DNA from: Synechococcales cyanobacterium VAR_4_metabat_354 | GTDB lineage: Bacteria > Cyanobacteriota > Cyanobacteriia > Cyanobacteriales > Chamaesiphonaceae | Length of the DNA stretch: 64,000 nucleotides | Direction of reading: 5' to 3' | NCBI GenBank assembly: GCA_031414775.1 | Contig: JANOQI010000048.1 | Span: 45,232-109,231, forward strand | Shown here: positions 49,686-64,000 of the stretch, piece by piece | How positions within the stretch are numbered: position 1 is the first letter of the stretch | Layout of the letters: each line of letters starts with the position of its first letter | Translations under genes and position numbers: made by a program | The notes under the pieces: model-generated | Database searches by the model: none | Seen by the model: only the letters and a program-made list of their open reading frames with translations | What the model was told of the DNA's origin: nothing

Positions 49686-50822
49686 ATGGTTGGTAGCGAT
49701 TACAAACCTGGATTAGAAGGGGTAGCAGTTGCACAGTCGAGCATCAGCTATGTCAATGGTCAAGAAGGTATTCTGGAGTATCGCGGCATTCCCATCAGTG
49801 AGCTTGCCCATCGGAGTACTTTTATTGAAACCGCCTACCTATTAATTTGGAATAGGCTACCTAGCTCACTTGAATTAGCCGAGTTTGAGCAAGAAATTTA
49901 TTCGCATCGGCGAATTAAATACCGAATCAGAGACATGATGAAATGTTTCCCAGAAACAGGTCATCCGATGGATGCCTTGCAAGCTTCAGCTGCGGCCTTG
50001 GGTTTATTTTATTCGCGACGCGCCTTGACTGATCCAATTTATATTTGGGAAGCTGTCACCCGCTTACTGGCGAAGATTCCAACGATGGTAGCTGCCTTTC
50101 AATTAATGCGCAAAGGCAATGATCCAGTTTTGCCTCGGGATGACTTTGGTTATGCCGCGAATTTTTTGTACATGCTCACCGAAAAAGAGCCAGACCCATT
50201 GGCGGCTAGAGTTTTGGATATCTGTCTGATTCTTCATGCCGAGCACACCATCAATGCTTCTACATTTTCGGCAATGGTGACGGCTTCCACCTTGACCGAT
50301 CCCTATGCTGTCGTTGCTTCGGCCGTTGGGACATTAGCAGGTCCCTTGCATGGTGGTGCCAACGAGGATGTAATTGCTATGCTCGAAGAAATTGGGACAG
50401 TCGATCGAGTGCGTTCTTATGTGGAAGAATGCGTGGCTCAGAAGAAAAAAATCGTGGGCTTTGGCCACCGGGTTTACAAAGTAAAAGATCCCCGCGCGAT
50501 TATTCTGCAAGACTTAGCTGAGCAACTTTTTGCCAAGTTTGGCCATGACAAGTATTACGATATCGCCGTAGAGCTAGAAAGAGTTGTCGAAGAGTATTAT
50601 GGCCAGAAGGGAATTTATCCCAATGTTGATTTTTATTCGGGTTTGGTCTACCGCAAATTGGGTATTCCCGATGATCTGTTTACACCGGTCTTTGCGATCG
50701 CCAGAGTGGCGGGGTGGCTAGCCCACTGGAAAGAACAGCTGGGCGAGAATCGTATCTTTAGACCGACTCAGATTTATACCGGTGGTCATGGACTGTCTTA
50801 TCAATCGATCGAAGAGCGATAG
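49686..50822 (+). CDS. gltA: citrate synthase
   Basis: PGLEGV, HAEHTINAS, GPLHGGANE, GFGHRVYK, YPNVDFYSG. Confidence 0.98.
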   Translation: MVGSDYKPGLEGVAVAQSSISYVNGQEGILEYRGIPISELAHRSTFIETAYLLIWNRLPSSLELAEFEQEIYSHRRIKYRIRDMMKCFPETGHPMDALQASAAALGLFYSRRALTDPIYIWEAVTRLLAKIPTMVAAFQLMRKGNDPVLPRDDFGYAANFLYMLTEKEPDPLAARVLDICLILHAEHTINASTFSAMVTASTLTDPYAVVASAVGTLAGPLHGGANEDVIAMLEEIGTVDRVRSYVEECVAQKKKIVGFGHRVYKVKDPRAIILQDLAEQLFAKFGHDKYYDIAVELERVVEEYYGQKGIYPNVDFYSGLVYRKLGIPDDLFTPVFAIARVAGWLAHWKEQLGENRIFRPTQIYTGGHGLSYQSIEER

Positions 50823-50892
50823 CTCTTGCCGAGACGCAATAGGTCATGCTATCCTTACAAAGGTGCACTAGGAAATAGTTCATCCCGAGCTT

Positions 50893-50981
50893 GGAGAGGT
50901 GGCTGAGTGGTCGAAAGCGGCCGATTGCTAATCTGTTATACGGTGTAAGCCGTATCGAGGGTTCGAATCCCTCCCTCTCCG
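50893..50981 (+). tRNA. tRNA-Ser(GCT)
   Basis: GGAGAGG/CCTCTCC acceptor, TGAGTGGTCGAAAG D-arm, TTGCTAA anticodon loop, long variable arm, GGTTCGAATCC. Confidence 0.95.
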
Positions 50982-50988
50982 CTTTAAT

Positions 50989-51016
50989 AAAACCCTGGCT
51001 ACGAAGTCAGGGTTTT
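50989..51016 (+). terminator. intrinsic terminator after tRNA-Ser
   Basis: AAAACCCTGGCT-ACGA-AGTCAGGGTTTT. Confidence 0.8.
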
Positions 51017-51148
51017 GTGTTGGCAAGCCAGATTTTTTCAGCGAAATTTGATAAATTTCTACATCAATTCACCACTTTTGAGACAGGTTCGCTTAAATTA
51101 GGATTATATTCCACGGATTTTTAGGCTTCACCCGATCGAGGAAATAAC

Positions 51149-51487
51149 ATGGATCATGAAAACCCGCCCAACCGCTCCTCTAGTAGTGATTTAGTGCCCC
51201 AAGTGCCCATGAAACGCGAAAATGAAGTAGATGAAATCAAGCAAGCTACCAAAAAACTGATGGGTGCCCTGGGTCGGTTGGCTCAGAACAAGGCGCGTTC
51301 CGCCCGCGACCTTTCTCAAGATGCTTACCAAGAAATTGAGCATTCGGTACAAGTAGCCAAGTCAAAGGCTGATCAAAAGCTAAAAACCGTCAAGAAGGAT
51401 GTTGGAACTGCCGACAATCGTTTTACGAAGGCCGCCAAAGCAGCCTGGGACGCTTTGTCTGCGCCCCATTCTAAAGATCAAGATTAA
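51149..51487 (+). CDS. small helical hydrophilic protein
   Basis: GAGG RBS; ends KAAKAAWDAL; convergent 4-nt overlap with the amylase gene. Confidence 0.7.
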   Translation: MDHENPPNRSSSSDLVPQVPMKRENEVDEIKQATKKLMGALGRLAQNKARSARDLSQDAYQEIEHSVQVAKSKADQKLKTVKKDVGTADNRFTKAAKAAWDALSAPHSKDQD

Positions 51488-52959
51488 GTATCTTCGACCC
51501 AGACCGAGACCGACCCACCATTACAACAGAACTCGCCCCAACCATCAGCATTAGTAACTACTGATAGCGAGACGTGGCCAGTAATGTCCTTAAAACTAGT
51601 TAAGGGTTGATCAACTTTCATCCATTTACTGCCACCAGCTCCATCACTTAGTATTACTGCCATTTTTTGGGGATGGTCAGTGTCGCCCATTCTTGTCCAG
51701 CCAATTAGATTGGGGTGGTCAAAGTAATCAAGCTGATCACCATAGGCAAAGTTCTGGCGGGCATACAGTAACTGATCGATGATTTGATGATGAGATTCCA
51801 TCCAAATTTCATGGTCATTACCATCCCGACCTTTATCGACATAGTGGGCACCATAGTAATCGGCATAAAACACGCAAGGATAACCAGCCCGGCGCAGCAA
51901 TATCAAGGCATAGGCCAACGGCTTGAACCAACTTTCTACTACCGATTCTAGTGATTGCAAAGGCTGGGAGTCGTGATTTTCGACAAAGGTGACGGCTAGA
52001 GTGGGCTGTTGTTGAGCTAGAGTACCATCAAAAATCTGACGCATATCATAGTTACTCCCAGCCTTGCTTGCTTCACAAAAGTTGTAGTGCAAGGGGACAT
52101 CAAAAAGCGATGTCTGACCGCCGGTCTGGCTCAGAAATCCATGCAAATCATTAACATCATCAGACCAATATTCACCAACAGTAAATAGTTCTTTGTGGGT
52201 ACGTTGACGGACATAACTCAGCCAGTCGGGGAAAAAGCTGGAGCGAATATGTTTGACAGCATCCATCCGAAAACCATCAATGCCTAGCGTGTTGACAATC
52301 CATTCGCCCCAATTTTTGAGTTCATCAATAACTTCTGGTTCGCTGGTATCTAAATCACAAGCCATCAAGAAATCATAGTTACCATGCTCCAGATTAACGC
52401 CTGTTTCAAAGTGTTTAGCCTTGAAGCGATAGATGGTATTGTCGCCGGGTTTAAATGTATTGTGATTTACCGAGTCGAAGTGCCGCCAGTTCCATTTCAT
52501 TTTGGAATACTGTTCCCCGCGACCAGTGAAGTTAAACTGAGTCCAGACTTTGATGGTTTCGACGGCTCCAGTGTCGTTATTACGATTATCGATCGATACG
52601 GGAATGGCATCGACTAATTCATCAGCATCACCACCATTTTTGTGATTAAAAACAGTATCAACATAAATTTGGATGCCTACCTCGTGAGCAGCTTTAATAG
52701 CGGCTGCTAATTCGATGCGGCTACCATATTTGGTCTTGACGGAGCCTTTTTGATCGAATTCTCCTAAGTCAAATAAATCGTAGGTGCTATACCCAACATC
52801 ATTAGTGCCATTACTGCCTTTATAGACTGGTGGCAACCACATTGCTGTAAACCCCGCCTTGGCTAGGTCGGGAGCATTTTTTTCTAATTGTCGCCAGTGT
52901 CCACCATCATTGGCCGTATACCAATGAAAGTACTGCATCATAGTGCCATTGATAGTCAT
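51484..52959 (-). CDS. amyA: alpha-amylase (GH13)
   Basis: NGTMMQYFHWY, YDLFDLGEF, DGFRMDAVKH, GEYW, FVENHD; start placed at ATG 52959. Confidence 0.95.
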   Translation of the reverse strand: MTINGTMMQYFHWYTANDGGHWRQLEKNAPDLAKAGFTAMWLPPVYKGSNGTNDVGYSTYDLFDLGEFDQKGSVKTKYGSRIELAAAIKAAHEVGIQIYVDTVFNHKNGGDADELVDAIPVSIDNRNNDTGAVETIKVWTQFNFTGRGEQYSKMKWNWRHFDSVNHNTFKPGDNTIYRFKAKHFETGVNLEHGNYDFLMACDLDTSEPEVIDELKNWGEWIVNTLGIDGFRMDAVKHIRSSFFPDWLSYVRQRTHKELFTVGEYWSDDVNDLHGFLSQTGGQTSLFDVPLHYNFCEASKAGSNYDMRQIFDGTLAQQQPTLAVTFVENHDSQPLQSLESVVESWFKPLAYALILLRRAGYPCVFYADYYGAHYVDKGRDGNDHEIWMESHHQIIDQLLYARQNFAYGDQLDYFDHPNLIGWTRMGDTDHPQKMAVILSDGAGGSKWMKVDQPLTSFKDITGHVSLSVVTNADGWGEFCCNGGSVSVWVEDT

Positions 52960-53088
52960 AGTATTATCTATCCATAGGTGTATAATCGCTGACCTCATTC
53001 TAGACGCTAGCCGTACCGAGGCTAAACCCCATGTAAGCAATAATGACGGATATAGTTTAAAACAAAGAAAACAATTCTGACCCTTACT

Positions 53089-54267
53089 ATGTATCAGGTG
53101 AAGTGGATCGATCGATTGTCTGATATCCCACAAATGGCTTGGGATGCTCTGGCCTTACCCCTCAAAACCCCCTTCCTGGAATGGGAATGGCTTCACAACC
53201 TGGAAGCTTCCGGTAGTATTGCTGCTGAAACGGGCTGGTTGCCCAGACACCTGACAGTTTGGCAAGGCAGCGAACTAATTGCGGCGGCTCCGCTCTACCT
53301 AAAAGGTCACAGCTACGGCGAGTTTGTCTTTGACCAACAATGGGCCGACCTATCTCACCGATTAGGAATTCAGTACTATCCCAAGCTGTTGGGGATGACC
53401 CCGGTTACACCCACCGAAGGCTATCGATTCTTGATGGCGGTCGGCATTGACGAGATGGCCATGACCGAACTGATGGTGCAGGAGATCGATAAATTTTGCC
53501 GCAACAATAGAATTTCTAGCTCCCACTTTTTGTACGTAGATCCAGAATGGCAACCCCTAATCGAACAACAGGGCTATAGCCCCTGGATGCATCACAGTTA
53601 TATCTGGCAAAACGCTGACTACCAAAATTTTGACGATTACTTGACCAGTTTCAACGCCAACCAACGCCGCAACATCAAGCGCGAACGTAAGGCTGTCGGC
53701 ACTGCCGGTTTAACCCTGAAGCCGCTCACTGGTGAGTCGATCGATCCCCAAATGCTGCCCTTGATGTACGAGTTCTACGCCGACACCTGCGATAAATTTG
53801 GCGGCTGGGGCAGTAAATACCTGATGCCAGAATTTTTTGAGAACCTCTATCCCAACTATCGACATCGCCTGATGTTAATGGCTGCTTATTTGGAAGGAGT
53901 AACCGAGCCAGTGGGTATGTCTTTTTGTCTTTATAAAGGCGATCGACTGTATGGCCGTTACTGGGGTAGCCGCAAGGATATTGATTGCCTGCATTTTGAT
54001 GCTTGCTACTACTCTCCGATCGAATGGGCAATCGCACAGGGCATTAAGGTTTTCGATCCCGGTGCTGGCGGTCGGCATAAGCAGCGGCGAGGCTTTCCGG
54101 CTACCCCTAACCGCAGTATGCATCGTTTCTATCATCCCCGTTTCGAGCAAATCTTGTGCCAATATCTGCGGGAGGTTAATGAACTAGAGCTGCGGGAAAT
54201 TGAAGCTATCAATCAAGATTTGCCTTTTACGGTGCCTGAGATTGATTTGTCGGTTTATGGCGCGTGA
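53089..54267 (+). CDS. FemAB-like GNAT protein (DUF482)
   Basis: LYLKGHSYGEFVFD, LYGRYWG, LHFDACYY, GAGGRHK. Confidence 0.92.
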   Translation: MYQVKWIDRLSDIPQMAWDALALPLKTPFLEWEWLHNLEASGSIAAETGWLPRHLTVWQGSELIAAAPLYLKGHSYGEFVFDQQWADLSHRLGIQYYPKLLGMTPVTPTEGYRFLMAVGIDEMAMTELMVQEIDKFCRNNRISSSHFLYVDPEWQPLIEQQGYSPWMHHSYIWQNADYQNFDDYLTSFNANQRRNIKRERKAVGTAGLTLKPLTGESIDPQMLPLMYEFYADTCDKFGGWGSKYLMPEFFENLYPNYRHRLMLMAAYLEGVTEPVGMSFCLYKGDRLYGRYWGSRKDIDCLHFDACYYSPIEWAIAQGIKVFDPGAGGRHKQRRGFPATPNRSMHRFYHPRFEQILCQYLREVNELELREIEAINQDLPFTVPEIDLSVYGA

Positions 54268-54582
54268 CAGAATTGAATTGACTAGTGAAACTTGCCAGTG
54301 AGGGGTTCATCAAAGTCTGGCACGGTGGCGAGCATTCTAAACCTCACGGTGACTTCTTTGTCTTCGTACTATCCTAAATCTTGCTGAAAATACATAATAG
54401 ATATAACTAGCTACTATGGTAGCCATAACATTTTATAGAAACCATTTGAGGTCTGTAGCGTAATTTTAGGCATTAAATCGCTTTGAGCAAATCGTAAGTT
54501 TTTGATAATAATAGTATTTGATCTGATGTAAACTGGGGATATTAGGTATCGGCAGTAAAAATACGATCAGGAGAAGAGCATT

Positions 54583-55431
54583 ATGGGGCAGCTATCAAAG
54601 CGCATTAGCCGGGTGGTTCAAGCCGAGATGAACTTCAGTAAAAGTGATTGTGATGAAACTTACCTGAACAAAGGAGCTGCCTTAGTTGCTGGAGGAGCGG
54701 TTACAGGTGCTTCTATTGGCAAGGTTGGAATATTAGCAGGTGGGACAGGCTACGGCCTCGGTGCTGTGCCACTCGCTGCCGCTGGTGCATTAACAGGTGC
54801 CGCCCTTTACGAAGTGCTGCGATCACTCATTGAAGGTGACACTTCCTCTGCAAGCGCTGCGGCGATTGGAGCAGCAGCAGGTGCAGCAACTTCAGCAACG
54901 ATTGGAGGAGTTGGTGTAGCTGTTGGTGGAAGTGCGATTGGGATTGGTATGGCTTCAATGGCAGTAGGTGGAGCCGTAGTTGGGCTGGGTTTAGTTGGCT
55001 TAAATCGTCTGCTTCAGCAAGGCATCGATCCAGAGGAGCTTTTGGATAGTGCGATCGAGCAGATGGAAGCAGACTTACAGAACGCACGAAAAGCAATCGT
55101 CAATGTAATTGCCAGCCAGAAGCGACTTCAACAGCATTACGAACAGGCGCAAGCGGAAGTCAATAAATGGGAACGGCGGGCATGGCTCGCCCTGCAAAAA
55201 GGAGATGAGTATCTGGCGCGGGAAGCTCTGATTTGCAAGGGGACGCACTCTGGAATTCTCAGCAGCCTTAAAGTTCAGCTCAATCAAGAACCAGCTGCGG
55301 TTAAAAAACTTAAACAAAATCTAACTCTTCTAGAAGCCAAGATCTCTGAAGCAAAAACTATGAGAAACAGTCTGAAGGCGCAGATTGCAGCTGCTAAGCT
55401 AAATAGGCAGTTGTCCAGTATTAAAAAGTAA
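54583..55431 (+). CDS. PspA/Vipp1 (IM30)-family protein with glycine-zipper insertion
   Basis: AGGAG RBS; helix0 MGQLSKRISRVVQAEMN, about 110 aa Gly/Ala hydrophobic insert, then DPEELL...WERRAWLALQKGDEYLAREAL...LEAKISEAKT. Confidence 0.88.
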   Translation: MGQLSKRISRVVQAEMNFSKSDCDETYLNKGAALVAGGAVTGASIGKVGILAGGTGYGLGAVPLAAAGALTGAALYEVLRSLIEGDTSSASAAAIGAAAGAATSATIGGVGVAVGGSAIGIGMASMAVGGAVVGLGLVGLNRLLQQGIDPEELLDSAIEQMEADLQNARKAIVNVIASQKRLQQHYEQAQAEVNKWERRAWLALQKGDEYLAREALICKGTHSGILSSLKVQLNQEPAAVKKLKQNLTLLEAKISEAKTMRNSLKAQIAAAKLNRQLSSIKK

Positions 55432-55450
55432 ATTTTTGGAATTATAGAAG

Positions 55451-56608
55451 ATGCGTCAGGAATTTTTGAATCGCTTGCAAGAAATTTTGTATGAAAAAGT
55501 AAGAGGAGGCTGGAGAGATGGATGGGTTTATGATAAGTTAAATCAAGAATTTACGTTACAACAAGATGAATTAGAGGAGATGGCTCGGAGACTAGGATTC
55601 AAAATGGGTTGGAATGCTCCGCTTAAGTCACTTTTAGAAGGGCAATGGCAGCGAGAAAGAGTTCACAGTAAACCAAAAAACATTATGACTGATAACTCTT
55701 GGCATGGCGTTAGTCTTGAAAAAGAATTGCAACGAATGAAAGAGGAGCTAAAGCGATCTGGGAGAAAAATACCAGGTAGCCTAGATAACTCATTTGATGA
55801 TTTAGCTGATGTTTCCGATAAGCTCAGTAACTTAGTAGGAATGCAGAATGTGAAGGACGACATTCACACTCTTATTAACTTTTTGAAGATTCAAAAAATG
55901 CGAGAAGTAGAAAATCTACCCAGTATTTCTGTTACCTTACATTCTGTTTTTTGTGGACCACCTGGCACAGGTAAAACGACAATCGCTCGTTTGATGGGTG
56001 GAATATACAAGCAGTTAGGTGTACTTTCAAAAGGGCATGTTGTTGAAACAGATCGCTCAGGGTTGGTTGCAGGTTATATTGGTCAAACAGCAATTAAGGT
56101 AGATAAAGTAGTCGAGTCAGCTTTAGATGGCGTACTATTTATTGATGAAGCTTACACATTGGCACCTGAGAATGCTTCTTCTAAAGACTTTGGGCAAGAA
56201 GCGATTGATACTTTGCTTAAAAGAATGGAAGACAATAAAGACAGATTAGTGGTTATCGTTGCTGGTTACAGTGAAGAAATGTCGCATTTCATCAATGCTA
56301 ATCCTGGCTTGCAATCACGTTTTAATCGATACTTTAACTTTCAAGACTATAACCCTGATGAATTACTAGTAATTTTTAGAGAAATTTGTGAGAAAAGTCA
56401 TTTTAATTTGGCTGAGCCATCCAGAGATGTTTTACTCAAGAAATTGACGCTTTTGTACGAAAATAGAAATGATAGATTTGGAAATGGTAGATTGGTGAGA
56501 AATATTTTTGACAAAACTGTTGAGAAACAGGCAAATAGATTATCTAAGCTATCTAAAGTTAGTAGAGAAATGCTAATGACAATTTCTCCTGAAGATATTC
56601 CTGAATAA
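55451..56608 (+). CDS. AAA+ ATPase, SpoVK/CbbX/EccA family
   Basis: LVGMQNVK, GPPGTGKTTIAR, LVAGYIGQTA, VLFIDEAY, IVAGY, NPGLQSRF, FGNGRLVRN. Confidence 0.93.
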   Translation: MRQEFLNRLQEILYEKVRGGWRDGWVYDKLNQEFTLQQDELEEMARRLGFKMGWNAPLKSLLEGQWQRERVHSKPKNIMTDNSWHGVSLEKELQRMKEELKRSGRKIPGSLDNSFDDLADVSDKLSNLVGMQNVKDDIHTLINFLKIQKMREVENLPSISVTLHSVFCGPPGTGKTTIARLMGGIYKQLGVLSKGHVVETDRSGLVAGYIGQTAIKVDKVVESALDGVLFIDEAYTLAPENASSKDFGQEAIDTLLKRMEDNKDRLVVIVAGYSEEMSHFINANPGLQSRFNRYFNFQDYNPDELLVIFREICEKSHFNLAEPSRDVLLKKLTLLYENRNDRFGNGRLVRNIFDKTVEKQANRLSKLSKVSREMLMTISPEDIPE

Positions 56609-56735
56609 GATTGACAATTGCATGAAGTTTCTCCGTGCAATATCTGACAATCGTGCATAAGTAGACCAATACCGAATCTATTAACGATCATCAAAATCAA
56701 TAACTGAAATACTTAATGATCATTTGTGAGGAAAT

Positions 56736-56939
56736 ATGCTGAAAACGGTTTGGGCTAGGATTCGTCAAGGAAAAATTGAACTTCTGGAGTCAACAGAGCT
56801 TCCCGAAGGAACAAGGGTGCTAGTAACGCTGCTTCCTGATGATGAAGCTGGTTTTTGGCTAGAAGCGAGTCAAAAATCATTAGATGCCGTATGGGATAAT
56901 ACTGAGGATGATGTATATGCTCAGCTACTCCAAACATGA
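56736..56939 (+). CDS. putative antitoxin (DUF104/AF2212-like)
   Basis: GKIELLE..LPEGTRVLVT core, WDNTEDDVY tail; overlaps the toxin start. Confidence 0.75.
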   Translation: MLKTVWARIRQGKIELLESTELPEGTRVLVTLLPDDEAGFWLEASQKSLDAVWDNTEDDVYAQLLQT

Positions 56940-57246
56940 CATTATTTTAGTTCGCTATCCATTCTCGGACTTGTCGAATTCCAAAGTGAGACCTGCGGTT
57001 GTGATAAGCGCACCACACCCTTCTCAAGATATTCTGATCACGCCATTGACAAGCAAAGTGGGATCGTTGATTGAAGGTGAATTCGCGCTTTCTGAATGGT
57101 CGGCAGCAGGACTAAACGTATCTACGGCAGTCAAGCGAGGTGTGTATACAGTACATGGGAGTTTGGTGATAAAGGTGATTGGTAAGTTAGCTGATGTGGA
57201 TGCAGAACGGCTAGAACAGTCTTTGAAAGGTTGGCTGGGATTGTAA
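56917..57246 (+). CDS. PemK/MazF-family toxin
   Basis: DIILVRYPFSDLSNSKVRPAVV and PLTS motifs. Confidence 0.88.
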   Translation: MLSYSKHDIILVRYPFSDLSNSKVRPAVVISAPHPSQDILITPLTSKVGSLIEGEFALSEWSAAGLNVSTAVKRGVYTVHGSLVIKVIGKLADVDAERLEQSLKGWLGL

Positions 57247-57390
57247 TATGCGCCGACTTTTGGGTGCCCAGCAGAGATTCGGTGGTGGATCGAGCAGCCG
57301 GGATGAATTCTGGGTGAGAGCTGACTTGGCAGATCGACTTGGCCTAAACTTAGGAAACAAATAAAATGATTACGCCAGTCATGTTTTTAC

Positions 57391-58242
57391 ATGAGAGATA
57401 TTTCTGAAACAGCCCACTTGGTAGCGATGTACCGGGCTTTAGCCAGCGAATGCCCTAAAGCTCTATTTCAAGATCCTTTTGCCCGGTTGTTGGCCGGTAG
57501 CCAAGGGGAAATGATGGTGGCAGTCTTGGGCGAACCACAGCGCGGCGTGAATGCCCTGGCAATCCGTACCCAGGCGATCGATCAAATGATCCAACAGCTC
57601 ATCACCACCGAGACAGTGAGCACCGTGCTTAATTTAGGTGCTGGACTGGATACCCGCCCCTATCGCTTGGCTGTACCTGCGACTTTGCGCTGGATTGAGG
57701 TAGATTTGCCGGATATCTTGACCTACAAAGAGCAAAAATTACAAGAATTCAAACCAGTTTGTGAGATCGATCGGATCAAATTAGACCTCACTGATTTTCA
57801 ACTGCGCCACCAACTTTTAACCGAAATCAACGCGGCTCACCAGCCCGTACTCGTAATCACCGAAGGACTTTTGGCTTATCTGACCGAACCGCAGGTCGCG
57901 GCACTAGCCAAAGACTTGCAGCAACAATCCCACCTCCGTTGGTGGCTGTTGGACTTGGCCTCACCATTTCTACTACAGCAATCCCGCCAGCATCCGGAGC
58001 AGCAGATTTTTGATCAATATTTTGCCGATGGCCAACCGACCTTTCTTTTTGCTCCTGCTGCTGGCACTCAATTTTTCCAGCCCTATGGCTGGCAAGTACG
58101 GGAGTTTCGATCGATCTGGTCGGAGTCCCAGCATTTGCAAAAATTCGCTGGACTAAGTGTGATCTTGATGCGCTTATTTGCCAAGCAATATTGGCAAGCG
58201 ATCAGCCAAGATAGTGGATTTGTCTTACTGGAGCAGAGCTAG
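57391..58242 (+). CDS. LCM-type SAM-dependent methyltransferase
   Basis: TAHLVAMYRA, DPFA, LGAGLDTRPYRL, EVDLP, ITEGLL. Confidence 0.92.
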   Translation: MRDISETAHLVAMYRALASECPKALFQDPFARLLAGSQGEMMVAVLGEPQRGVNALAIRTQAIDQMIQQLITTETVSTVLNLGAGLDTRPYRLAVPATLRWIEVDLPDILTYKEQKLQEFKPVCEIDRIKLDLTDFQLRHQLLTEINAAHQPVLVITEGLLAYLTEPQVAALAKDLQQQSHLRWWLLDLASPFLLQQSRQHPEQQIFDQYFADGQPTFLFAPAAGTQFFQPYGWQVREFRSIWSESQHLQKFAGLSVILMRLFAKQYWQAISQDSGFVLLEQS

Positions 58243-58304
58243 CTCCATTTCTTAGGGGGCAACTCCGCTAGAATAGAGGGCGTAGACAACATCATCACTA
58301 GCCC

Positions 58305-59396
58305 ATGTCCATACTGGCCGCGATCGCTGTTTTGGCGGTTCTCATTTTCGTTCATGAATTAGGTCACTTCTTAGCGGCCAGACTCCAAGGAATCTATGCC
58401 AACAAGTTTTCGATCGGGTTTGGTCCCATCCTCTTTAAGTATCAAGGCGAACAGACCGAATATGCCCTACGGGCTTTACCCCTCGGTGGCTTTGTCGGTT
58501 TTCCCGATGACGACCCAGAGAGCGAAATTGCCCCCGATGACCCCAATTTACTACGCAATCGGCCAGTTCTCGATCGAGCGATCGTCATTAGTGCTGGGGT
58601 CATCGCCAATTTAATTTTTGCCTACTTCTTACTTGTTACCCAAGTCGGACTAATTGGCACTCCCGACTTAAGTTACCAACCGGGTGTGGTTGTTAATGAT
58701 ATTGCGACTAGCCTCAGTAGCGCAGCGGCGCAGGCGGGTCTGAAGCCCAATGACATTGTGCTATCGATCGATGGTCAAGAGCTAGGAGCCAAGGAAACGG
58801 CCATCACCGACTTGATGACGGCTATTCAAACCCATCCCAACCAGACCCTGGCCTTTCAGGTACAACGCGGCGGCGAAACTCTCAAATTGAGTGTCAAACC
58901 AGAAAGTGGTGCTGAAGGCAAAGGTCAAATCGGGGTCAAACTTGCTCCCAACGCTAAAGTTGTCCGTCACCGAGCGGCGGGAGTAGTCGATGCCTTCACC
59001 AAAGGCGCTCAGGAATTTGAAAAGGTGATCCTGCTGACGGTCAAAGGACTAACCCAAATTGCGACTAACTTTGGCGAAACAGCTGGTCAGGTGGCTGGGC
59101 CCATCAAAATTGTGGAAATTGGTGCCAACATTGCTAGTTCTGATGCGGGCGGTTTATTTCAGTTCGCGGCTCTCATTAGTATCAATTTGGCTGTGATGAA
59201 CATCTTGCCTTTACCCGCGCTGGATGGTGGTCAGCTGGCTTTCTTGTTGATTGAAGCATTATTGGGCAAACCATTGCCGATGAAGATTCAAGATACAGTA
59301 ATGCAGACGGGCTTGGCGCTACTGCTGAGCTTAGGTGTATTTCTAATTATCAGAGATACCGCCAACCTACCCCCTATTCAGCAATTTTTCAAATAG
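58305..59396 (+). CDS. rseP: RIP metalloprotease RseP
   Basis: HELGH, PDZ domain, NILPLPALDGG. Confidence 0.96.
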   Translation: MSILAAIAVLAVLIFVHELGHFLAARLQGIYANKFSIGFGPILFKYQGEQTEYALRALPLGGFVGFPDDDPESEIAPDDPNLLRNRPVLDRAIVISAGVIANLIFAYFLLVTQVGLIGTPDLSYQPGVVVNDIATSLSSAAAQAGLKPNDIVLSIDGQELGAKETAITDLMTAIQTHPNQTLAFQVQRGGETLKLSVKPESGAEGKGQIGVKLAPNAKVVRHRAAGVVDAFTKGAQEFEKVILLTVKGLTQIATNFGETAGQVAGPIKIVEIGANIASSDAGGLFQFAALISINLAVMNILPLPALDGGQLAFLLIEALLGKPLPMKIQDTVMQTGLALLLSLGVFLIIRDTANLPPIQQFFK

Positions 59397-59400
59397 ATTT

Positions 59401-60090
59401 ATGAGCGTGCGGCAGAAACTTCCCAAGAAACAGCGAGCTTTAGAAATTCTCCGCCGCTTACAAGCCTATTACCCCAATGCCACCTGTAGCCTCGATTACG
59501 AAACTCCAGTTCAGCTACTAGTGGCAACAATTCTGTCGGCGCAATGCACTGATGATCGGGTCAATATCGTCACTCCCAAGTTGTGGCAGCGTTTCCCCGA
59601 TGCTCCCGCTATGGCCGATGCCGAGTTAGAGGAACTAGAGGAATTAGTTCGATCGACTGGTTTCTATCGCAATAAAGCCAAAAATATTCAAGGGGCTTGC
59701 CGCAAAATTGTCGAGGAGTTTGATGGAGTAGTACCCCATGAAATGAATCAGCTCCTGACCTTACCAGGAGTAGCCCGCAAAACAGCCAACGTTACCTTGG
59801 CTCATGCCTACGGCATTATCGTGGGAGTGACAGTAGATACTCATGTCAAACGGCTGAGCTATCTGTGGGGCTTAAGCAAACACACCGACCCAATCAAAGT
59901 AGAGCAAGATCTAATGAGGCTTTTGCCCCAGCCCCATTGGGAGCAATATTCGATCATGAGCATCTATCATGGTCGTGCTGTTTGTAATGCCCGCCAGCCA
60001 GACTGTCCTAATTGCCAGTTTGCTGATATTTGTCCAGCGGCAGACAAGGCGCAGCAAGTCAATGCGCGGCGGAAAGCGCAAGGGGGCTAA
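59401..60090 (+). CDS. nth: endonuclease III
   Basis: LSAQCTD, LPGVARKTAN, VDTHV, C-terminal Cys4 Fe-S motif. Confidence 0.97.
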   Translation: MSVRQKLPKKQRALEILRRLQAYYPNATCSLDYETPVQLLVATILSAQCTDDRVNIVTPKLWQRFPDAPAMADAELEELEELVRSTGFYRNKAKNIQGACRKIVEEFDGVVPHEMNQLLTLPGVARKTANVTLAHAYGIIVGVTVDTHVKRLSYLWGLSKHTDPIKVEQDLMRLLPQPHWEQYSIMSIYHGRAVCNARQPDCPNCQFADICPAADKAQQVNARRKAQGG

Positions 60091-60099
60091 AAAGAGTCG

Positions 60100-60378
60100 T
60101 TAGAGAGAATTGTGGCTGGATAAGAGCTGCTCCACTTTGGCTTCTTCAATTTTGGACATAATTCTTTTCGATTCGTGTAAGTCGCGTTGGGTTTTGGCCA
60201 AGGAAAAACTAGAAGCTACTGAAAAAGTTAAACCCATCCCCATAAATCCTTTCACCCAGGCATCTACAGGCAGATAAATAATTCCAGTGGCAGTGATGCC
60301 GATCGACATCACAAACGATATCCAAGTTTGGGCAATCCAGGCATTACTATCACCTTGACTAGCAGTTGTGCGATTCAT
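60100..60378 (-). CDS. YiaA/YiaB-family inner membrane protein
   Basis: Two TM helices; WVKGF and LAKTQRD motifs. Confidence 0.85.
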   Translation of the reverse strand: MNRTTASQGDSNAWIAQTWISFVMSIGITATGIIYLPVDAWVKGFMGMGLTFSVASSFSLAKTQRDLHESKRIMSKIEEAKVEQLLSSHNSL

Positions 60379-60627
60379 GATTATTTCTCCGATTTCCTTT
60401 TTCTGTTGATATCCTAAATTTTAGGCAAATCTGAAATCATCCTGGGTCGGTAGTGGACAGTTAATTTATTGACCTATGAATTTATTCTCTCAGCGTTACT
60501 GAGGACACTTTAACAATGTGCAGTAGGACAAACAGTCCACAACTGGATGATATGATTCTCGTTGCCTAGTTTGAGCGTTGGCGGTGCTCAAACTATTGAT
60601 TTTATTCTTTAGACCTAGTTCTTACCT

Positions 60628-62256
60628 GTGACCTCAAGTAATCAGCAACCGAAAAAATCTCTGGTCAGTATTGCGCGGGTAGTGGCGATCGCCACGCTCT
60701 TGAGCAAGGTCGCCGGGTTGGTGCGGCAAGTAATTGTCTCTGCTGCTTTTGGATTAGGCACAGTAGCTACGGCCTACGGCTATTCCAACATCATCCCATC
60801 CTTCTTTTTTATTCTGTTGGGCGGCATTAACGGTCCATTTCACAGCTCGGTTACGAGTGTGCTGTCTCGCCAAAAAGACCGCAATAAAATCGCTCCGATC
60901 ATTGAATCTGTGACCACCATTGTGGGCACTGTACTGATTTCACTCTCGATATTACTGATTATTTTTGCCGGTCAGTTTATCGATATTTTTGCCCATGGTC
61001 TCAAGACTGGTTTGGATTTACAGCAGGCTACTACCACCAGAAATGTCGCGATCGAACAGCTGCAAATCATGGCCTTCATGACTTTTTTGGCGGGGCTGAT
61101 TGGCATCGGCTTTGGTACTCTCAACGCTGGCGATATGTATTGGTTGCCCTCAATTAGTCCGTTAATTTCCAGCCTGACAGTGATTATCGGAGTGGGTGTA
61201 TTCATACTACAGTATGGCGACAAAAGTAATCTGATTGAAAATGCGCATCTGGGCGGACAGGTATTAGCCTGGAGCACTTTGGCGGGAGCGATTTTGCAAT
61301 GGGTTGTTCAAGTAATTGTGCAGCGGCAAGCTGGTTTGGGGACACTTCGCCTCCGATTCAATCTTCAGCTCCAAGAAGTGCGAGAGGTGCTGAGAATTAT
61401 GTTGCCAGCAATTCTATCCTCTTCGATGCTATCTATCAATCTAATTACCGACATAACTTTCGCCTCGAATATCCCCAAAGCCGTACCGGGATTTAACGCT
61501 GCTGCTTTGCTAGTGCAGACACCCTTGGGAATTGTCTCTAATTTTATTTTGGTGCCACTAATGCCGGTTCTGTCCCGGTTAACTGAACCTAGCAATTGGC
61601 CAGAACTAAAAGACCGGATTCGGCAGGGTCTGATTTTAACTGGAATAACCATGATGCCGATCAGCGCCTTGATCATTGCCCTGTCCTTACCGCTGGTAAA
61701 GTTGACCCTGGAGCGGGGAGCCTTCAAGGCTGACGACTCTCAGTTTTTAGCCTCAATTCTCATTGCCTCAGCCAGTGGGATGTTTTTCTCTTTGGGACGA
61801 GACATACTAGTACGAGTTTTTTATGCCCTGGGTGATGGCAACACTCCCTTTAAAGTCAGTATTGTTAGTATCTTTGTGAACTTCACTCTGGACTTTTTGC
61901 TGTGGCAACCACTGGGGGCACCCGGAATTTCGTTGGCTACCGTTGGTGTGATGATTACAACTTTTATAATTTTTCTGGTGATTTTGAATAAGCGGTTAAA
62001 TGGTTTGCCCTGGACAGAGTTGGGACCGCCGCTGTTTGGAATTTTTGGGGCTAGTTCGATCGCCGGTTTTATTACTTGGTTACTCGGTTATGCTTGGCAA
62101 CAGTTTGTACCGAGCAATTTTTTTACTTTGATCCTGCAACTCGTGATCTTAGGCAGCATTGGCCTGGGAATTTTTGGCTTGATTGCTACCCAACTGGCCA
62201 TCCCAGAGTTGGATATTTTAGTCGATCGACTAAAACAAAAATTCAAGAAGGCCTAG
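60628..62256 (+). CDS. murJ: lipid II flippase MurJ
   Basis: SKVAGLVRQ, GGINGPFHS, ERGAF, RVFYALGD. Confidence 0.96.
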   Translation: MTSSNQQPKKSLVSIARVVAIATLLSKVAGLVRQVIVSAAFGLGTVATAYGYSNIIPSFFFILLGGINGPFHSSVTSVLSRQKDRNKIAPIIESVTTIVGTVLISLSILLIIFAGQFIDIFAHGLKTGLDLQQATTTRNVAIEQLQIMAFMTFLAGLIGIGFGTLNAGDMYWLPSISPLISSLTVIIGVGVFILQYGDKSNLIENAHLGGQVLAWSTLAGAILQWVVQVIVQRQAGLGTLRLRFNLQLQEVREVLRIMLPAILSSSMLSINLITDITFASNIPKAVPGFNAAALLVQTPLGIVSNFILVPLMPVLSRLTEPSNWPELKDRIRQGLILTGITMMPISALIIALSLPLVKLTLERGAFKADDSQFLASILIASASGMFFSLGRDILVRVFYALGDGNTPFKVSIVSIFVNFTLDFLLWQPLGAPGISLATVGVMITTFIIFLVILNKRLNGLPWTELGPPLFGIFGASSIAGFITWLLGYAWQQFVPSNFFTLILQLVILGSIGLGIFGLIATQLAIPELDILVDRLKQKFKKA

Positions 62257-62732: not shown

Positions 62733-63752
62733 ATGAATGCAGTCGAAATCGAAGAAGCTGTTTCTGGGCTGGCAGAGGCACCCTTTGACCCAGAAACTTT
62801 CCCTTTTGCTTTTTTGCGGAGGATACGAATATTTTTCATAGTGAGGGGTTGTTTACGAATACGATCGCGCAGATGAGTGATGGGATGAATACTCATGAGG
62901 TGCTGTCGGAGATGTTTCGATCGATGTGTACGCTGCCTAAGGAGCGGGATGCAGAGGGGATTCGTAATTGGGCTAATGGGTTTCCCTATGTGAATGGGGG
63001 GTTGTTTTCGGGTGGGGTGGAGGTGCCGCGCTTTAGTAAGATTGCCAGGTCTTACCTGATCCATGTGGGGAATCTGGACTGGAAGAAGATCAATCCTGAT
63101 ATTTTCATGATGAGGAGCGCGGGGCGTTGGGGATGCACTATACGAGTGTGCCGAATATTCTCAAGGTGTTGAATCCGCTGTTTTTGGATGAGTTGCGATC
63201 GCAGCTTGAGGCGGCGGGAGATAATGGGCGGAAATTGTTGAATTTGCGATCGCGGATGGCGCGGATTCGGGTGTTTGATCCGGCTTGTGGGTCGGGGAAT
63301 TTTTTGGTGATTGCGTATAAGGAGATGCGGGGGATTGAGGCGGAGGTTAATCGGCGGCGGGGGGAAGCCGATCGCCAGTCGGAGATTCCGCTGACCAATT
63401 TTCGGGGGATTGAGCTACGCCATTTTTCGGCGGAGATTGCCCGGTTGGCATTGGTGATTGCTGAGTATCAATGCAATGTGCTTTACCTCGGACAGCAGGA
63501 GGCTCGATCGATGTTTCTGCCGTTGAAAGAAGATAACTGGATTACTTGTGGGAATGCGTTGCGATTGGATTGGTTGAGTCTTTGTCCACCGACGGGGATG
63601 GGGGTGAAAGTACAGGGTGAGGATTTGTTGAGTTTGTTGGATGACCAAGCGGAGGTTGATTTTGAGAATGAGGGCGGGGAAACGTATATCTGTGGCAATC
63701 CGCCGTATCTTGGATCGACTTGGCAATCTAACGAGCAAAAGGAAGATTTAAC
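62733..63752 (+). pseudogene. MmeI/YeeA-like type IIL restriction-modification methyltransferase, fragmented
   Basis: MNAVEIEEAVS start; FAEDTNIF; FPYVNGGLF; INPDIF; frameshift to LGMHYTSVPNI; DPACGSGNFL (motif I); GNPPYLG (motif IV). Two frame breaks, and truncated before the target-recognition domain. Confidence 0.88.
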
Positions 63753-64000
63753 GGAATCAGCAAAAGTCCCTACGCTCAGCGGAGCGGCGTAGGGATGGAT
63801 AGCGAGTGAGTTGACGATTGTGCCGCTCGCGAGATGCAAAGCACAGCTAGCAGTAGATGAGCGGTGCATGAGGAAACGAACAAATCCCTTGCATTTTCTT
63901 TGCACATCGATGACAATATTATCAACAACCTTAGTTAATGATAATGTATCAAGCTTACAAATTCCGACTAGATCCGACAGCCGAGCAGCAGCAGTATTTT
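63753..64000 (+). mobile_element. IS200/IS605-family element, left end (continues beyond window)
   Basis: Subterminal hairpin TCCCTACGCT/GGCGTAGGGA (63767-63795) with AAAG at its foot, followed by a tnpB start; left boundary approximate. Confidence 0.75.
63944..64000 (+). CDS. tnpB: TnpB N-terminus (partial, runs off the window)
   Basis: MYQAYKFRLDPTAEQQQYF matches the AYKFRLYPTxEQ N-terminal motif of IS605 OrfB; alternative ATG at 63938. Confidence 0.75.
   Translation, partial: MYQAYKFRLDPTAEQQQYF

Follow-up and report, generated by a model that had tools for sequence, protein, structure and literature searches.

We found that the open reading frame at 54583..55431 (+) of the 64,000-nucleotide stretch of cyanobacterial DNA analysed here (hereafter the window) encodes a truncated paralog of Vipp1, 282 amino acids long, that consists of helix 0, a twin insert and helices 1-3. 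Judged by its sequence, it derives by shortening from a full-length paralog. The window allele is thus a truncation, and the family that surrounds it is the more interesting result.

The assignment to PspA/Vipp1, proposed in the initial annotation, was borne out by Pfam, which matched PspA_IM30 over the C-terminal half of the protein (residues 140-279 against profile positions 14-153 of 220; 103 bits for a cut-off of 33.9). Using the helix numbering of the Vipp1 and PspA papers cited below, alignment with 14 canonical Vipp1 sequences showed that the window protein spans Vipp1 residues 1-154, which comprise helices 0-3, and ends there. The hairpin of helices 1-3 (residues 149-279; 55027..55419, +), delimited by Pfam and the alignments, matches canonical Vipp1 strongly (hhalign 99.8%) and, on inspection of the alignment, its tip residues seem to be retained. 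The opening stretch of helix 0 (residues 1-17; 54583..54633, +) was recovered by comparing the family profile with canonical Vipp1 (hhalign 97.3%). As residues 1-17 correspond to Vipp1 1-17 and residues 141-149 to Vipp1 15-24, the insert splits helix 0; the earlier proposal of an insert parting helix 0 from helix 1 is upheld for the insert and refined as to its placement, which is within helix 0 itself. Helices 4-5, the polymer interface, are missing from the window protein and are found in its genome solely in the host's ordinary Vipp1, a single copy on contig C57 adjoining a thioredoxin-like ORF. The C-terminal extension (helix 6), which the full-length relatives have, is missing as well. 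Because helices 4-5 are absent here and yet present in 99 of 118 relatives, we file the window copy, on these alignments, as derived from Vipp1 and not as a working Vipp1.

The insert was described earlier as two related hydrophobic repeats after helix 0, a description that our repeat test upheld. Repeat 1 (residues 29-84; 54667..54834, +) and repeat 2 (residues 90-145; 54850..55017, +), the latter being the most hydrophobic part, align with a BLOSUM local score of 96, compared with 44 +/- 7 in shuffled sequences, none of which reached the observed value in 5000 trials; the repeat-to-repeat profile alignment gave hhalign 96.9%. The insert is 50% Gly+Ala, with 7 charged residues in 113 and 10 GxxxG starts in residues 30-142, and the duplicated repeats exceed what this composition gives. 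Charged residues are nearly absent from the module cores, glycines are conserved, and the two repeats are connected by a linker of acidic character. The insert defines a real family.

AlphaFold2, run on the insert with 93 sequences, returned models with pLDDT values of 88.7, 73.6, 72.8, 61.2 and 40.8, only one of the five being above 80 (pTM 0.79), and the insert was poorly predicted (pLDDT <50) in the model of a full-length relative. In the insert model each repeat is a helix, a beta-hairpin and a helix, so that the two motifs, read earlier as a glycine zipper, are predicted to form beta-hairpins flanked by small-residue helices instead of plain zipper helices. The best 19-residue Kyte-Doolittle means (repeat 1, ~1.5; repeat 2, 1.84) are marginal for classical transmembrane helices. 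As hydrophobicity is marginal except in the last helix, membrane insertion is a prediction; the twin module is predicted to anchor the protein in the membrane; alternatively, it may anchor shallowly or as a re-entrant segment, or fold as a soluble domain.

Searches with the insert found no Pfam family at E <= 1, glycine-zipper families included, and a single match among PDB sequences, to an antibody chain (E 0.16). The fold search of the module, solved pore formers included, gave a best Z of 5.5, within noise, and Foldseek gave nothing below E 0.9; this absence of a fold match above noise does not show a new fold. All language-model Atlas neighbours of the insert scored below 0.9. The pore-forming effector suggested earlier therefore received no positive support from Pfam, PDB sequence or fold searches. 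The insert resembles the Gly-zipper_Omp-like families in its GxxxG-rich, small-residue hydrophobic segments, and differs from them in having no Pfam match, a predicted beta-hairpin in each repeat and one weak language-model neighbour (0.78).

A homolog search with the window protein returned 117 proteins, mostly of 370-390 amino acids. We classified 118 sequences with insert and hairpin, of which 106 were the first of the homolog matches, 7 were other proteins and 5 came from locus ORFs; ten lower matches were set aside because they did not have the insert in full. Helices 4-5 are missing in only 19, several of which probably reflect a contig end, a frameshift or an internal deletion. The nearest relatives, at 88-92% identity and 366-382 amino acids, carry helices 4-6; among them are P0003 (92% identity, 381 amino acids) and P0118 (366 amino acids), which belongs to the same 90% cluster as the window protein. 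The best structural match of the full-length relatives is solved Vipp1 (55% identity, E 2e-10), as the structure model of P0003 shows. The initial annotation had correctly noted that the protein lacks the C-terminal helices, but had taken this for a family design; as the nearest relatives and most of the classified sequences carry helices 4-5, homologs run past the stop and a family-wide absence is refuted.

At the DNA level, a full-length allele from the same genus is 92% identical over 54529-55409 (blastn). Homology to full-length alleles breaks at ~55409-55419, with four codons after 55409 matching as amino acids alone, and the rearrangement junction with its new stop codon occupies 55410..55431 (+). 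The lost 3' part of the gene was found neither downstream nor elsewhere in the genome, ruling out a simple frameshift or nonsense change. A quick tree pairs the window protein with P0002 (support 96) and nests the pair among full-length neighbours. The cut sits at the natural hinge between helices 3 and 4, the same end as in a separate hairpin-only clade (L157, L158, L159 and P0158; support 100, quick tree); P0102 and P0114 are likewise hairpin-only, with cluster members equally short. Hairpin-only forms thus recur in the family, which also contains random-looking breaks elsewhere (P0087, P0088, P0106, P0016).

The junction is bridged, at ~95-100% identity, in four runs (X1, X4, X5, X9) from three studies (P1, P2, P3), one of which, X1, may be the source of the window assembly; an assembly artefact is thereby ruled out. 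X4 is identical at the junction, X5, from the second study, is ~95% identical and continues into the adjacent AAA gene, and X9, from the third, reads 41 bases beyond the junction. Relative to two full-length alleles, the window branch, which also spans time before the cut, carries 19 synonymous changes in 208 sites and 14 non-synonymous changes in 617 sites (dN/dS ~0.25, p = 7.6e-5 against neutrality). Both the window allele and P0002, ~5% apart, keep an open reading frame as far as the end of the hairpin; in P0002, helix 3 contains a proline, and a conserved arginine is changed in both short alleles (R218C). Collectively, the short allele is kept across strains and is neither artefact nor plain debris. 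Because the short form is kept and a hairpin-only clade exists, two roles offered earlier, a membrane-inserted hairpin and a modulator of Vipp1, stay plausible.

The gene lies in a 3.1-kb inserted segment (54272..57389, +) with a FemAB-like gene on one side and an LCM-type methyltransferase gene on the other. In another genome of the genus (G003) the flanking genes abut and window 54272-57389 is absent from the site, and GC drops to 0.31-0.40 across the AAA part of the segment. The blastn homology begins with a leader remnant (54529..54582, +) common to the full-length relatives, whose leader begins at an attC-like site that is lost in the window. An attC-like model built from 10 sites, L022 among them, had a match no further than 300 bp upstream in four (L021, L022, L118 and L159) of 21 other non-duplicate loci, the sites in L021 and L022 lying 140-160 bp upstream, and none in window 50000-62000. 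An integron integrase (TIGR02249, above cut-off) is present in the window's genome on contig C35. Contigs C35, C38, C50, C53 and C62 of this genome, G000 (L210, L111-L114), hold this integrase and scattered attC-like sites, some of which adjoin toxin-antitoxin genes. The full-length gene occurs in only 2 of 40 related genomes, and its neighbourhood is a different one at every one of 11 genome loci. As a module, the insert is cyanobacterial and mobile. Within the segment, 56736..57246 (+) carries a 67-aa ORF, by its position a probable antitoxin, and a PemK/MazF-like toxin gene, also found in G007. Among viral contigs no relative was found with P0003, Rfam identified tRNAs only, and promoter and terminator counts were at shuffle level. 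Elsewhere in the window (62849-63792), two overlapping ORF pieces look by eye like a split DNA methyltransferase.

Starting 19 bp past the stop codon on the same strand, the next gene (55451..56608, +) encodes a 385-residue AAA+ ATPase of SpoVK/CbbX/EccA type; the profiles that fit it best, SpoVK, EccA and CbbX, each fall short of their cut-offs, and neither an MIT domain nor a Vps4-clade AAA domain was matched. Residues 83-102 (55697..55756, +) form a motif resembling helices 5 and 6 of Vipp1, a short amphipathic helix conserved in 26 aligned family members. The motif matches the Vipp1 helix 5 and helix 6 profiles with hhalign 89.7% and 93.8%, and 23 of the 26 members beat shuffles. Four close relatives of 307 amino acids begin at the residue matching Met79, just ahead of this helix. 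In a profile search with the motif, a single unrelated ORF came ahead of host Vipp1 helix 5 and of a TIGR04376 protein's C-terminus, the E-values being weak; taken alone, it ranks 4th of 5210 ORFs (E 0.83). The TIGR04376 protein (L178:3732-4304, G000:C42) has weak hairpin similarity and a helix-5-like motif at its C-terminus; it may be distantly related to PspA and be a further partner for docking. The AAA family (window 55451-56608; L181-L209) is solo, patchy, ~300 amino acids long and of SpoVK type, with the helix-5/6-like motif as its main N-terminal element; the window ATPase and two relatives have an extra N-terminal domain, matched as well by a helicase-like ORF (L156). A conserved operon with the AAA gene is unsupported, as an insert or hairpin gene was found within ~1.5 kb of none of 29 other AAA loci, nor in the 3 extended to ~8 kb. 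AAA and module genes co-occur in 18 of 27 genomes, a count that has no matched control.

A profile of the module found it in 58 of 401 genomes of the phylum and, in a further search, in 233 clusters at 50% identity. Surveying the loci together with 150 listed clusters of the 233, we distinguished full paralogs, hairpin-only proteins, proteins in which the module is followed by helices 4-5, WD40 and DnaJ, a permuted form (P0147), and micro-proteins of one or two repeats that often stand ahead of an HNH gene. This last pair, a micro-protein of 67-133 amino acids and then an HNH nuclease gene, recurs in L106, L107, L158, L162, L163, L224 and L226, and one paralog, P0089, ends in an HNH-like fragment. 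The order is helix 0, module, helices 4-5 and hairpin in P0147, and hairpin, module and helices 4-5 in P0192; paralogs P0007, P0031 and P0040 have an internally duplicated hairpin segment.

Among 29 long module proteins, picked by length alone (500 aa or more), the 75 residues after the module align with Vipp1 162-221 (97.0%), and 20 have the HPD motif of a J-domain near the end; WD40 and DnaJ were assigned by Pfam. Examples of this module-helix 4-5-WD40-DnaJ family (hereafter WD40/J) are L157:3700-5472, L160:2952-4811, L171:5398-7149, L101:2401-4269 and P0195, and we consider its members candidate Vipp1-directed co-chaperones. The WD40/J gene is often found near hairpin genes, between a frhB-like gene and a glycoside-hydrolase-like gene, which in family f7 we take to be HCAR and invertase, respectively. 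In the 12 f7 genomes inspected around the WD40/J gene, a hairpin-only or double-hairpin gene stands just upstream in 4 (in one with a small gene between) and a full paralog in 1; in 1 more a hairpin-only gene lies ~2.6 kb from the WD40/J 3' end, and 6 have no such neighbour. G129 has a hairpin-only gene and no second module match. Pairing of hairpin genes with WD40/J genes is therefore frequent, not obligate. Double-hairpin PspA-like proteins (L171:4608-5414, L172:4064-4873, L173:3423-4262) have no helix 0, module or helices 4-5, and their genes immediately precede the WD40/J gene, with an overlap in 2 of 3 cases. The window's own genome has no WD40/J partner.

What might a truncated paralog do? 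The accessible text of PMC8281802 reports that Vipp1 without helices 5-6 forms no rings and that helix 5 attaches to the tip of a neighbour's hairpin, and that of PMC12636044 that an IM30 fragment of helices 0-3 attaches to membranes both in vitro and in cells. A protein that lacks helices 5-6 would therefore not self-polymerise and would have a free tip. We give an even chance to the window protein, a lineage-specific short form of a mobile Vipp1 paralog, forming no rings alone and acting as a membrane-tethered tip, docking helix 5 and so capping or nucleating host Vipp1. By analogy with the published work, the lack of helices 4-6 would prevent rings of its own while the helix 0-3 part would keep membrane binding; the predicted twin module inside helix 0 would tether the protein in the membrane, and the free tip would putatively dock helix 5 of other proteins, most likely host Vipp1, whose polymers would be capped or nucleated at the membrane. 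The neighbouring AAA ATPase may be docked too, via its putative helix-5-like motif. Against this reading count the helix 3 proline of P0002, R218C, the missing WD40/J partner and the marginal hydrophobicity. The allele may also be a side branch of a membrane-anchored ESCRT-III system. A wider proposal, in which cyanobacteria split such a system between tethered hairpin-only paralogs and a polymer-locking helix 5 carried by the WD40/J co-chaperone and the AAA protein, these enzymes engaging hairpin tips by mimicry and polymers being dismantled as by a bacterial counterpart of Vps4, we consider doubtful.

Alternatively, the gene could be a decaying remnant with no selected role, left behind when a rearrangement, importing an unrelated AAA gene, cut into a mobile, full-length cassette gene. 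This is somewhat unlikely: full-length nearest relatives, the concomitant loss of the upstream attC-like site, the patchy insertion with its toxin-antitoxin pair, the possibly damaging changes in P0002 and the random-looking breaks elsewhere all fit it, whereas the frame kept open in two alleles, the synonymous excess on the window branch and a cut at the hinge where a separate clade also ends do not. The adjacency of the two genes raises instead a dedicated two-gene split ESCRT-III, with the hairpin as anchor and the downstream AAA protein giving helix 5 in trans, docking and remodelling as Vps4 does. The short same-strand spacing, the presence of both genes on one contig in the second study, the helix 5/6 profile matches and the parallel layout of hairpin and WD40/J genes speak for such a pair; it is nevertheless improbable, given that the other AAA loci have no insert or hairpin gene nearby, that a short amphipathic helix ranks no better than 4th on its own and that co-occurrence lacks a matched control. 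Most improbable among the alternatives is an effector in conflict or defence whose twin module would insert into and permeabilise the membrane, with the hairpin as trigger or scaffold. Patchy distribution, mobility, unconserved neighbours, nearby attC-like sites and toxin-antitoxin genes, and the single-repeat micro-proteins recurring beside HNH genes are consistent with it, but PADLOC gave no match better than E 0.009, all of them coiled coils, the same module heads chaperone-type proteins, and no immunity gene pattern was seen.

The reading of a membrane-tethered tip has parallels in known systems. The window protein resembles Vipp1/IM30 (PF04012; PDB 6zvr, 7o3w) in the start of helix 0 and the hairpin of helices 1-3, but is accessory and mobile, has a ~120-aa twin hydrophobic module in helix 0 and is without helices 4-6. 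It covers the same fold span as the IM30 helix 0-3 fragment (PMC12636044) and E. coli PspA 1-144 (PDB 4whe); unlike these laboratory fragments, it occurs in nature and carries a predicted membrane module in addition. An AAA+ ATPase beside an ESCRT-III-type gene recalls Vps4/ESCRT-III, but here the ATPase is of SpoVK/CbbX/EccA type, has no MIT-domain match and was seen adjacent in this lineage only. In the chloroplast, the HSP70B-CDJ2 system acts on VIPP1, as summarised in the accessible part of PMC13051332, and ties a J-domain protein to polymer disassembly, as proposed here for the WD40/J relatives; unlike it, the cyanobacterial WD40/J proteins, which this genome lacks, carry Vipp1 helices 4-5 and the module.

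In the text accessible to us, Vipp1/PspA are treated as peripheral membrane proteins whose domain architecture varies little (PMC11237479), a Vps4-like ATPase is apparently absent in bacteria according to a 2025 review (PMC7619361), and the regulation of polymer disassembly is called unclear in a 2026 review (PMC13051332). Titles and abstract openings from the non-subscription literature contained no description of the module family, and 0 papers joined WD40, J-domain, cyanobacteria and Vipp1. Part 2 of 3 of the PMC11237479 supplement has zero occurrences each of WD40, DnaJ and glycine; the web tables of that paper and the supplements of bioRxiv 10.1101/2021.02.15.431232 could list such proteins.

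Taken together, the family has an in-built module, predicted to be a membrane anchor, whose fold matches none recognised; some members occur naturally as the hairpin alone, and two types of enzyme bear a helix 5 like that of Vipp1. It gives named candidates for the anchoring, capping and dismantling of bacterial ESCRT-III polymers, and the relatives of the window gene hint at chaperones and ATPases as possible regulators of Vipp1 polymers.
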